Shown piece by piece: positions 26,333 through 30,409 of a stretch of DNA of 64,000 nt (positions within the stretch are counted from its first letter, which is position 1; every line of letters starts with the position of its first letter). The position numbers were made by a program, and so were the translations under genes. The DNA is taken from the NCBI GenBank assembly GCA_965261595.1, contig CBDHDG010000002.1:128001-192000 (forward strand), read 5' to 3'. The DNA comes from a bacterium. Lineage in GTDB: Bacteria > UBA8248 > JACPRG01 > G963555815. The notes beneath the pieces are model-generated. The model did not search any database. It was not told the DNA's origin and worked only from the letters and a program-made list of their open reading frames with translations.

Positions 26333-27129
26333 TCACAGCAAATCGTCGAAATCCGATTCCAGCAGGAGCGCGCGGGAGATCTTGTTGTCCACGCAGAAGT
26401 GCTTGACGAGGAAGACCACCTCCAGGACCCCCTTCTCGCTCAGCCCCAGCCGGCGGACCTCCCGCATGTGGAAGTCGATCCCTAATCCGACTTGGCGGTC
26501 ATGGACGCCGCCAGCGCCAGGATCTCCTTGGTGAGGCGGTCGAGCTTTCGGCCCGTGAACGCGGTCTTCACGTAACTCCAGTGGTCGCCCAGGTAGCCGG
26601 GGTCGTTCGCCATCACGCGGTGGACCCCCGGGACGAAATCCATCTCGTAGAAGCCCTTGATGTCGTCGAAGACCTCTTTGACCTTCCCGGCGGCCTTGGC
26701 CTCATCCACCAGGGAAACAAGGGGTTTGCGGATGCCTGGGTCGTTGAAGGGCAGGGGGACCCACACGCCGTCCGCCACAGCGTTGATCCCATGGACGGTC
26801 CCGACCGTGTAGGCCAGCTCGTACCAGATGTCGTCGTCCTTCAGGCCTTGCTGCTTCCCGGCAGCGGTGTGCGAGGCCGTTCAGTAGGGGCAGACGTTGA
26901 TGGCGCTGACCGCCGAGGCGATGAGCTCCTTCGTCGTCCGGGGGAGCGCGCCCGGGGAGAGCGCCCGCCGGGTGCACCGCCCCTGGCCGGCCCGGAACTC
27001 CGGGTAGTGGCTCAGGACACGAACCATCTTCGGGACGAAATCGATGTTGAAGAACTCCTTGACGTGCTGGAACTGCTTTTGCGTCTCTTCGGGAAATTCG
27101 GATTCGTCCCGAATGCGGACGGTCTCCAT
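26333..27129 (-). CDS. Tandem carboxymuconolactone decarboxylase/AhpD-like protein, putative selenoprotein (CPYU), with an apparent 1-nt deletion near 26482
   Basis: KELIASAVSAINVCPY-TGA(26881-26883)-TASH continues in frame into a second CMD repeat KEILALAASMTAKSD[Y]GIDFH...LL-stop. Span is 797 nt, one short of 266 codons. Confidence 0.8.
26844..26878 (-). promoter_or_regulatory. Candidate bacterial SECIS hairpin
   Basis: GGCCT..GCTGC-CGGGAA-GCAGC..AGGCC directly 3' of the UGA. Confidence 0.65.
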
Positions 27130-27448: not shown

Positions 27449-28168
27449 TCAGCGGGCCGCGGACAAAGACCGGAGCGCTTCAGGCGCCTCCCGGAAATGC
27501 CGGATCAGGACGTCCGGCGCCGCTCTCGCAAGCCGCGCTTCGCTGTTGTAGCTCATGGGCCAATCGACGGCGATCGTCATGACGCCCGTCTTTTGGGCCT
27601 CTCGAATGTCTTTTTCCATGTGCCCCGCGTACGCGCAAGTCTCGATGGGAATTTCATTCTCGGACAGGATATGCAGAATCCCGTGGGCCTTTGTTCTGCC
27701 GATGTGGTCGGGATTGAAGACCGTCGTCCACTCCCGCGCCGCGAGAGAGACGCGGGATTCTGGGAAAAATTTCCCCAACCCCAGACGCTCGATCTCCGCG
27801 CGGACGAATTCTCCTCCTTTCGATGTAATGATGGAGCAGGTCACGCCGTCCCGACGCAACTCTTCGAGCACCTCGGCGGCGCCCTCACACAGCTTCCCCT
27901 TCGGCTCGCCCTTCGTGGCGCGGACCAGCTCCGCCCGCAGCACCTCCCGGTCGTAACCCGGCATGAATTCCGGAATGATGAACTCGTCCAGCGTCCCCTC
28001 GGTGACGTCGCGAAAGTGATCGAACGTGATTTCGCTCAGGCCGTGCAGGACCAGGACCTTATTCGTGATCGAAAACGCGACGCGCACGTCGTCGTAAAGG
28101 ATCCCGGGAAAGCTCAGGATGAGGTGATCGATGGGCCGGGCGGACGCGGCGTCCCGTGATGCCTCCAT
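27449..28168 (-). CDS. HAD-fold protein with degenerate catalytic motifs
   Basis: AAGGAG RBS. HAD/PGP-like layout (IITSK, D..AQKTGV, APDVLI), but motif I reads SFPG and motif IV reads GH. Confidence 0.7.
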   Translation of the reverse strand: MEASRDAASARPIDHLILSFPGILYDDVRVAFSITNKVLVLHGLSEITFDHFRDVTEGTLDEFIIPEFMPGYDREVLRAELVRATKGEPKGKLCEGAAEVLEELRRDGVTCSIITSKGGEFVRAEIERLGLGKFFPESRVSLAAREWTTVFNPDHIGRTKAHGILHILSENEIPIETCAYAGHMEKDIREAQKTGVMTIAVDWPMSYNSEARLARAAPDVLIRHFREAPEALRSLSAAR

Positions 28169-28254: not shown

Positions 28255-28869
28255 TCATGAAGTCCCGGGCGTCTCTCCGATGCGGACGCCTTCGAGCCCG
28301 AGCATCCGGGCTTTGGTCGAGACGCCGCCGGGCGCCGAGAATCCTCTCAGGTCCCCCCGGGACCCGATGACCCGGTGTCACGGAACGGCGATGGGAAGCC
28401 GGTTTTTGGCCATGACGACGCCCACCGCGCGGGCGGCCCCGGGCGAGCCGGCCGCGGTCGCCACCTGGCCGTACGTCCGGACCCGTCCCCAACCGATTTT
28501 CCGGGTCACGCGCGTCACCCGCCGGGAGAAGGGAGAAAGGTCCGAGAGGTCGAGGTCGAAGCTCAGCGTGACCGGTTTGCCTTCAAAGTAATCTTCGACC
28601 GATTGGATGACCCGTCGAAGAAAGGGGTTGGGGGGATTGCTCAACCGGGCATCCAAATCCCTCAACTCGGCCTCGACTTGTCCCCGGCTGTCGAGATGGA
28701 GGATCAGGCGGCGGAGACCTCGTTGGGTGGCGGCGGCGCCTGCCCAACCGAAGGCCGTCCGAAAAGCGGCGCCTTCGAGTCCGGAAGGAGGTTGGGGCCC
28801 CGGACCGGCTTTCGCATTTCGAGGGGGCTGATTGCGGCCGTTCGAAGCGGTCATCGATTTCTCCTTCAC
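28255..28869 (-). CDS. ogt: O6-methylguanine-DNA-protein methyltransferase, putative selenoprotein (PUHRV)
   Basis: GRVRTYGQVA, ARAVG..MAKN.LPIAVP-TGA(28378-28380)-HRVIGS.GDLRGFSAPGG...K..ML.LEG. Confidence 0.9.
28347..28367 (-). promoter_or_regulatory. Candidate SECIS hairpin
   Basis: TCGGGTCCC-GGG-GGGACCTGA 9-bp stem after a 10-nt spacer 3' of the UGA. Confidence 0.65.
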
Positions 28870-29149: not shown

Positions 29150-30409
29150 GTGAGACGAACACTTGAGGACATCGATCCGGAAATCGCCCGCGTTATCGAC
29201 CTTGAGCAGACCCGGCAGGAAGAAGGTCTCGAGCTCATCGCGTCGGAGAACTTCACAAGCGCGGCGGTGATGGAGGTCCAGGGGTCGGTCCTGACGAACA
29301 AGTACGCCGAAGGGCTGCCCGGCCGCCGGTATTACGGGGGCTGTGAGCATGTAGACACGGCCGAGAACCTTGCGCGCGAACGGGTCAAGGCCCTGTTCGG
29401 CGCCGCCCATGCCAACGTTCAACCTCATTCGGGGACGCAGGCGGTGACGGCCGGATACCTGGCTTTTATCCGTCCGGGCGACACCATCCTCGGCATGAAC
29501 CTGGCCCACGGAGGCCACCTGACCCACGGAAGTCCCGTCAGTATTTCCGGGGGCCTGTTCAACGTTGTCGCCTACGGCGTGGACCCGAAGACCGAGCGGA
29601 TCGACTTCGACGACGTTCGCTCCAAGGCGCGGGAACACCGTCCGGCCATGATCGTCGTCGGGGCGAGCGCCTACCCGCGCGTGATCGAGTTCGATCGGTT
29701 CCGGGAGATCGCCGATGAGGTGGGCGCGAAGGTCATGGTCGACATGGCCCATATCGCCGGCCTGATTGCGGCCGGAGCTCACCCCAATCCTGTTCCCCAT
29801 GCCGACGTTGTCGCCGCCACGACGCACAAGACGTTGCGCGGACCGCGCGGCGGGTTTGTGCTGACCAACGATGAGGAGACCGCGAAGGCGCTGAACAAGA
29901 AAGTCTTTCCGTACCTTCAGGGAGGCCCTTTGATGCACGTCATCGCGGCCAAGGCGGTGGCTTTCAAAGAGGCGGCGACGGAGGCGTTCCGGGACTATCA
30001 GCGGCAGATCGTGCGCAATGCCGCGGCGCTGGCCGACGCCCTGCTTTCGAGCGGAACCCCGCTCATCTCGGGGGGAACGGACAACCATCTCATGCTCGTC
30101 GATTTGCGCAAGAGTCCGGTGGACGGGAAGACCGCCCAGCTCGCCCTGGAAGCGGCCGGGATCACGGCGAACCGGAACGCCGTGCCGTTTGACGAGCGCT
30201 CCCCCTTCGTGGCCAGCGGGGTCCGGATCGGGACGCCCGCCGTGACGACCCGGGGAATGCGGGAAGAGGAGATGCGCCGGATCGGCCGGTGGATCTCGGA
30301 GATTTTGGGCGACGTGGAGAACACCGCCTTGCAGGCCAAGATCCGCGAGGACGTCCGGGAGCTCTGCGGAAGGTTTCCCCTCTATGCGGGAAGCCCGGCC
30401 GCGGCCTGA
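29150..30409 (+). CDS. glyA: Serine hydroxymethyltransferase
   Basis: LIASENF, NKYAEG, GGHLTHG and [12 protein letters not shown]. Confidence 0.98.

Follow-up and report, generated by a model that had tools for sequence, protein, structure and literature searches.

On the reverse strand of a 64,000-nucleotide stretch of bacterial DNA (hereafter the window; positions 128,001 to 192,000 of the forward strand of contig CBDHDG010000002.1, assembly GCA_965261595.1, GTDB lineage UBA8248), we found a gene whose reading frame is crossed by an in-frame TGA. Its sequence indicates that it very probably encodes an O6-alkylguanine-DNA alkyltransferase of the Ogt/MGMT type with selenocysteine (Sec) as the alkyl acceptor, and we refer to it as Sec-Ogt. 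The UGA stands in the context ...AKNRLPIAVP-U-HRVIGSRGDLRGF..., giving the motif P-U-H-R-V, and exactly 40 sense codons separate it from the terminal stop, which is itself a TGA. A hairpin of the type of a selenocysteine insertion sequence (SECIS) lies within these codons (Table 1). An earlier note on the window had described a TGA at the acceptor Cys of the PCHR motif, an intact 40-residue Ogt C-terminus behind it and a 9-bp hairpin. We could locate each of them: the TGA at 28380..28378 (-) in LPIAVP-U-HRVIGS, the 40 sense codons under a full-length domain match, and the hairpin at 28367..28347 (-).

Given the AAGGAG in front of it, ATG 28854..28852 is a more likely start of translation than GTG 28869, and the product would then comprise 199 amino acids with Sec as residue 159. 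The C-terminal profile PF01035 (DNA_binding_1) matches at full length across the TGA (profile positions 1-81 of 81, residues 113-195, E 1e-27), and TIGR00589 (ogt) reaches 79.6 bits, with a cut-off of 46.4. PF02870, the N-terminal Ogt domain, gives a weak match (E 6.6e-4). In the source genome (G000; 6.17 Mb in 7 contigs, 96.7% complete), the match of PF01035 to this gene (G000:C2:156285-156533, 92 bits, one TGA) is the sole one.

Table 1. Features of the Sec-Ogt locus and its neighbours, in window coordinates.
Feature	Position	Strand	Remarks
Sec-Ogt coding region	28255..28869	-	GTG 28869 through in-frame TGA to terminal TGA 28257..28255; 204 aa
Shine-Dalgarno-like AAGGAG, putative	28861..28866	-	6 nt upstream of ATG 28854..28852; read from the sequence
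UGA codon, predicted to be read as Sec, at the position of the acceptor Cys in PCHRV	28378..28380	-	frame translation
C-terminal alkyltransferase/DNA-binding domain PF01035, spans the UGA	28285..28533	-	profile match, residues 113-195
40 codons 3' of the UGA (HRVIGSRGDLRGFSAPGGVSTKARMLGLEG...), coding-type evolution	28258..28377	-	synonymous/non-synonymous counts
SECIS-type hairpin, 9-bp stem, GGG loop 28358..28356	28347..28367	-	fold
glyA, divergent from Sec-Ogt	29150-30409	+	found in 6/6 loci of the window's own family
HAD-type hydrolase, downstream of Sec-Ogt	27452-28168	-	found in 3/6 loci of the window's own family
Second candidate selenoprotein, carboxymuconolactone-decarboxylase/AhpD-like	26485-27129	-	in-frame TGA 26883..26881

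The state of the acceptor codon was read in the best Ogt match of each of 51 genomes of the phylum, the source genome included. These matches fall into the window's own family (f1), a neighbouring family (f2) and a third that consists of a single genome (f3). TGA occupies the acceptor codon in 43 of the 51 genomes (7/7 in f1, 35/42 in f2 and 1/1 in f3), and TGC or TGT in seven. In G014 the only motif-bearing match is Cys-type and lies within a long frame (~356 aa). Neither an Ogt match nor selA was found in G049, a genome that is 67% complete. Ten genomes from other phyla also gave matches: the codon specifies Cys in each of the nine that were read, and the match in the tenth, G058, has no reported internal stop.

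A quick tree with SH-aLRT (Shimodaira-Hasegawa-like approximate likelihood-ratio test) support, from which 14 duplicate rows were dropped and L021, L063, L088, L095 and L106 were left out by length filters, places the Cys forms of G019, G022 and G038 within the Sec clade of f2 (support 97). One of these nested Cys forms belongs to an unresolved group with two Sec forms of the same genus (support 99). Since the Cys-only genomes keep selA and Cys forms nest among Sec forms, TGA and TGY interchange within the phylum. Such interchange is usual in selenoprotein families.

The other f1 genomes, like the source genome, carry a single Ogt-type gene each by the PF01035 query (that of G005 in two pieces), and the same query returned no second, Cys-type match in the source genome or in f1. 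On the other hand, most f2 genomes have a second, Cys-type Ogt match in a frame of ~350-390 aa (for example G034:C4:2789626-2790084 and G020:C1:4389920-4390375), possibly a fused, Ada-like form.

Around the TGA, the window protein reads YGQVA...ARAVG...N-RLPIAVP-U-HRV...MLGLEG. The family's acceptor Cys is replaced by the TGA codon, which sets the Sec subfamily apart from the Cys enzymes, and the family's fold and the remainder of its motif are kept. Asn -8, counted from the acceptor, is present in 43/43 Sec forms of the phylum, and the Sec forms also have His +1, Arg +2 and the C-terminal Glu. Among 103 distinct Sec rows, one of them unreadable, Arg -17 and His +1 are each found in 102 and Tyr -31 in 99. 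R-A-V-G is the DNA-binding segment of Ogt. In the numbering of human AGT, the residues of the active site are N137, C145, H146 and E172 (PMC4150793).

The best solved relatives are the Cys-type Ogt chains 4wxc_A and 4bhb_A (E 3e-20 to 7e-20). The TGA position, printed as C for the comparison, aligns with the PCHRV Cys of both, and the codons past the UGA align with the C-terminus of the solved chains. The window protein has the same two-domain layout as the Cys-type enzymes (4wxc_A, 4bhb_A, 1wrj_A, the Ada C-terminal domain 1sfe_A and human AGT, 1eh6_A), and shares with them Tyr -31, R-A-V-G, Asn -8, P-x-H-R-V and the C-terminal Glu. It differs in that its acceptor is encoded by UGA and that a SECIS-type hairpin, mostly absent in Cys forms, lies within the codons that follow. 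Among the best 150 representative proteins, 147 have C in the motif, two end with the residue directly ahead of this C, and in one no motif was seen. The nearest Cys representatives, P0004 and P0005, are 48% identical to the window protein.

Position +13, that of human Tyr158, is Phe in 100 of the 102 readable Sec rows and Tyr in 8 of 16 Cys rows. We rejected Phe +13 as a Sec-specific residue: the 147 nearest Cys-type representatives have 113 F, 24 Y and 10 others, the latter mostly one-residue shifts. Phe +13 is thus a subfamily trait.

Past the TGA, the sequence bears the signature of coding sequence and not of a decaying tail. In the first 31 codons, synonymous changes outnumber non-synonymous ones in 15/15 pairs of six f1 genomes; the window and G004, for example, differ at 15 synonymous and 6 non-synonymous sites. 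In 13/15 of these pairs, the synonymous excess past the TGA is at least as large as that in the 31 codons before it.

The source genome has what Sec insertion would require. A tRNA-Sec is found by Rfam (72 bits) and called tRNA-SeC with anticodon tca by ARAGORN; selA (550 bits) and selB (390 bits) are adjacent and have no internal stops; and selD (L012, G000:C5:89297-90265) reaches 330 bits with one in-frame TGA. All four score above their curated cut-offs, and the selD product is probably a Sec-containing selenophosphate synthetase, a known type. A global reassignment of TGA can be ruled out: the terminator of the gene is a TGA, neither selA nor selB is interrupted by a stop, and, in a crude count that includes non-genes, TGA closes 70 of the 93 open frames in the window that are 250 codons or longer.

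The window hairpin has nine pairs, one of them G-U; it follows a spacer of 10 nt, begins 13 nt past the U of the UGA and is located in the stretch that encodes I-G-S-R-G-D-L. In 41/43 Sec forms, an uninterrupted stem of 7 bp or more, closed by a loop of 3-4 nt, starts 12-16 nt past the UGA. Only 2/16 Cys forms reach a stem of at least 7 bp, both with loops of 7-8 nt.

The f2 Sec forms (35 sequences, 31 of them distinct) carry a 7-bp helix that is paired in 100% of 217 cells. Two of its pairs (GC/CG/AU and CG/UA) account for 13 compensatory cells, and every one of these is at a synonymous site. This combination of pairing and compensation was reached by 0/500 shuffles, and partners slid out of register pair in 26-53%. 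In the 16 Cys forms, 49% of the cells in the same structure columns are paired.

The stems differ between the families (GGGUCCC/GGGACCU in f1, CGAGCUC/GAGCUCG types in f2 and GGCCUCC/GGAGGCC in f3), and the registers of the f1 and f2 stems are offset, yet the position of the hairpin is the same. The loops of the Sec forms nearly always contain GG, which fits bacterial SECIS models. The earlier note had proposed to examine whether codon and hairpin are conserved among Ogt homologs, and had named as the finding that would speak against it close relatives that all carry TGY with no conserved hairpin. Instead, TGA prevails in the phylum and the hairpin is kept in the relatives, with the compensatory changes in f2.

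Beyond the phylum, we scanned one genome per prokaryote species with the degenerate pattern N-x6-P-TGA-H-R-V-x4-G-x-L-x-G. At least 114 further stretches matched, where by our own estimate about four would be expected by chance. The scan undercounts Sec-Ogt because it requires the Asn and G-x-L-x-G. We fetched and examined 80 of these loci. In 78 of them, which carry about eight different phylum labels, an Ogt-like frame flanks the TGA on either side; this number includes L088 and L095, in which the contig ends 23 codons upstream of the TGA. The remaining two, L104 (Mariniblastus) and L109 (Methanolobus), have no open frame and were discarded as chance matches to the pattern. A stem of at least 6 bp past the UGA is present in 70/78 loci, in a search made with a wider window and without a Cys control.

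Fourteen of the fetched loci are identical to loci of the window's phylum, under titles that read Nitrospinota, Nitrospinaceae, Tectomicrobia or simply 'bacterium'. Another 61 distinct rows of the quick tree are labelled Bacillota (27 rows), Planctomycetota (10), Chloroflexota (8), Nitrospirota (7), Thermodesulfobacteriota (4), Pseudomonadota (2), Myxococcota (1) and Fusobacteriota (1), and one row has no label.

Two placements among these loci deserve mention on their own. L117, from a metagenome-assembled genome (MAG) titled Gammaproteobacteria, has its Sec-Ogt inside the f2 clade beside the copy of G023 (support 99, branches of ~0.03), which could reflect mis-binning, mislabelling or a recent transfer. 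L088 and L095 come from one Bacillota MAG; both contigs begin 45 bases before the pattern match, and the two loci encode the same peptide with one base different in the printed stretch. The pair resembles a repeat or a contig-end duplicate produced by the assembly.

Several observations weigh against a Sec-encoding gene, and the first of them concern the hairpin. Measured against shuffled sequences, with the 64% G+C of the source DNA as the backdrop, the window hairpin alone (41 nt) has a z of -1.32, with 21/200 shuffles folding as well, and the 91-nt hairpin region has a z of +0.33. In six f1 genomes, 92.6% of 54 hairpin cells are paired, which is no better than shuffles. Moreover, these six sequences contain 0 compensatory changes, with 7/9 pairs invariant; an A-C mismatch inside the stem occurs in 2/6 and the second pair of the stem is unpaired in 2/6, G004 having both. 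The hairpin also lies within the codons of a conserved peptide, and constraint on the protein may explain some of its conservation.

Further points of this kind come from the relatives and from the literature. All seven Cys-only genomes of the phylum have selA above the cut-off; therefore, Sec is not obligatory, and the idea that the Cys form is used where the Sec machinery has been lost is ruled out. In G005 (L021, f1), the Sec-Ogt frame is shifted 9 codons past the TGA. Finally, our literature search found no protein, selenium or activity data for any natural Sec-Ogt.

Because the fold of the single sequence is not above chance, the support for the hairpin rests on the relatives, and since f1 shows no compensatory change, the window's own family is uninformative on this point. 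As for G005, the run of G across the loop and 3' arm of the hairpin is one G shorter there than in the relatives, and the frameshift is either a homopolymer assembly error or a recent pseudogene.

Considering the alternatives, one could imagine a selenium-dependent switch, in which the full repair protein is produced when selenium is available and a lack of it yields a truncated protein of 163 residues with a role of its own, such as damage binding in the manner of alkyltransferase-like (ATL) proteins. At bacterial UGA-Sec codons, termination competes with Sec insertion; the truncated form would still have its N-terminal domain and the greater part of the DNA-binding helix region, and, this being the sole Ogt-type gene, its output would follow the selenium supply. 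However, nothing in our data indicates a function for the truncated form, which ends one residue before the acceptor and loses 40 residues that are under purifying selection. ATL proteins resemble the window gene product in having an Ogt fold whose acceptor is not encoded by a Cys codon, but those known are full-length domains with another, standard and non-nucleophilic residue there and perform no transfer. In the window gene the position is a UGA, accompanied by a SECIS-type hairpin and the Sec machinery, and an acceptor is therefore expected, unlike in ATL. Altogether, we regard such a switch as very unlikely.

Even less probable is a pseudogene or truncated gene, in which translation stops at codon 164 through a nonsense change from TGY to TGA, or through an error of assembly, and the tail is left to decay. 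As the terminator of the gene and the count of long frames illustrate, TGA serves commonly as an ordinary stop in this DNA; public protein sets store cut forms, with P0003 and P0012 ending exactly at ...VP; and the G005 gene is frameshifted just past its TGA. Against this, the TGA recurs in 43/51 genomes of the phylum and at 78/80 of the loci fetched from other genomes, change past it is dominated by synonymous sites, and PF01035 runs at full length across it. Furthermore, a decayed copy would be the genome's sole Ogt-type gene, and the hairpin covaries in the relatives.

We find it scarcely credible, too, that the UGA is decoded as Cys, Trp or another standard residue, through near-cognate suppression or a mischarged tRNA-Sec, giving an ordinary Cys-Ogt or an inactive variant: the switches between TGA and TGC in close relatives (G019, G022, G038) do imply that Cys works in the same scaffold, but the Sec pathway is complete and intact in the source genome, a SECIS-type hairpin lies at the right distance from the UGA, and TGA is kept across most of the phylum with a Cys codon one base away.

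Among the neighbours of Sec-Ogt, the gene next after glyA is nrdR. We considered a conserved neighbour that might process methyl-Sec and rejected it, as the HAD-type hydrolase (3/6 f1 loci) and glyA (6/6) reflect local synteny only. At a distance of 1.1 kb from the end of Sec-Ogt, the second candidate selenoprotein reads ...VCPY-U-TASH, with a CxxU motif; the Pfam carboxymuconolactone decarboxylase (CMD) profile matches across its TGA (E 1.7e-15, residues 50-101). Starting 18 nt past the U of its UGA is a 5-bp stem with the loop CGGGAA, set in an outer 5-bp stem, and the fold of this region is no better than that of shuffles (z +0.79). CMD-like proteins with CxxU are a known selenoprotein family in review tables (PMC9312934, PMC13188914).

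Taking the window gene as a Sec-type alkyltransferase, we infer Sec insertion, alkyl transfer to selenium and a single turnover per molecule. The hairpin would recruit SelB and Sec-tRNA(Sec) as the ribosome reaches the UGA; the codon at 28380..28378 would then be decoded as Sec, and the last 40 residues would complete the Ogt domain. Like Cys-type Ogt, the protein would flip out the O6-alkylguanine and take over the alkyl group in an irreversible SN2-type transfer. The acceptor would be a selenolate, deprotonated at physiological pH and in no need of activation. One protein and one selenium atom would be spent per lesion; this cost in selenium, which the earlier note had raised, can fairly be expected from the suicide mechanism. 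The other suggestions of that note, a faster or broader alkyl transfer and a recycling of methyl-Sec, are speculation. We also think it very improbable that Sec serves for more than speed, be it that the alkyl-selenoether can revert or be taken off, through oxidation and elimination or with the help of a partner enzyme, so that the protein turns over or is salvaged and is no strict suicide protein, or that a wider range of alkyl groups is accepted.

Chemical plausibility comes from an engineered protein. Human AGT with the C145U change protects E. coli lacking ada and ogt from N-methyl-N'-nitro-N-nitrosoguanidine (MNNG), as reported by Haruna et al. 2014 (PMC4150793), which shows that a selenolate can be an alkyl acceptor in vivo. 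The same report gives a pKa of ~5.5 for Sec and ~8.6 for Cys. Sec stands at the AGT acceptor position in both proteins, but the human variant is artificial, made by reading UAG with an EF-Tu-dependent tRNA and without a SECIS. Moreover, in the human enzyme N137A is tolerated with Sec and not with Cys (PMC4150793), whereas the corresponding Asn, dispensable in C145U, is kept in all natural Sec forms of the phylum (43/43).

A Sec-containing methylated-DNA-protein-cysteine methyltransferase was first reported in 2005, as CHY0809 of Carboxydothermus hydrogenoformans Z-2901 (PMC1287953). Wu et al. counted it as one of three novel selenoproteins that stood out from the largely redox-active remainder, and considered the case unique and recent (PMC1287953). 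The earlier note was therefore wrong in recalling such homologs only from metagenomic predictions, as the first came from the complete genome of an isolate. By its name, CHY0809 was found in our literature search only in PMC1287953.

According to its published description, CHY0809 shares with the window gene the Ogt/PF01035 domain, a UGA at the active-site Cys and a stem-loop immediately downstream, in a host with selA, selB, selD and tRNA-Sec; both were predicted by Sec/Cys homology. The two differ in their hosts, since C. hydrogenoformans is a thermophilic Firmicute and the relatives of the window gene are labelled Nitrospinota, Nitrospinaceae or Tectomicrobia. Furthermore, CHY0809 was seen as a unique case, whereas Sec is the majority state here.

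Later tables count two Sec-Ogt sequences in the Olavius symbiont metagenome (PMC1976440) and one in the Global Ocean Sampling data, beside 2,879 Cys homologs (PMC2398784). Reviews of 2022 and 2026 list Sec-Ogt with ABB14497.1 (PMC9312934, PMC13188914). A 2026 database paper places three Nitrospinota-labelled MAGs (GTDB UBA8248) among the selenoprotein-richest bacteria, with 48-54 genes each (PMC13326102), and one of the three is also the title of a locus in our pattern scan. The supplements of this paper on BSepDB (PMC13326102) may already list the Sec-Ogt genes of the phylum.

The window gene is hence not a new kind of selenoprotein but joins the Sec-Ogt family predicted since 2005, and, with the family catalogued for that long, the scientific value of the case is modest. 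What our analysis adds is breadth, with the Sec form as the majority state of a phylum (43/51) and present under about eight phylum labels, together with repeated TGA/TGC switches despite a kept selA and SECIS covariation at synonymous sites. The majority in the phylum and the at least 114 matching stretches contradict the 2005 view of a unique and recent case.

The family is among the few selenoproteins whose predicted chemistry is alkyl transfer and not redox. The case has practical value for annotation: gene callers end Sec-Ogt at codon 164 and the truncated form is what public protein sets contain, so that the source genome, as annotated, would appear to be without a working Ogt. With no other Ogt-type gene in the genome, the repair of O6-alkylguanine would depend on the supply of selenium.

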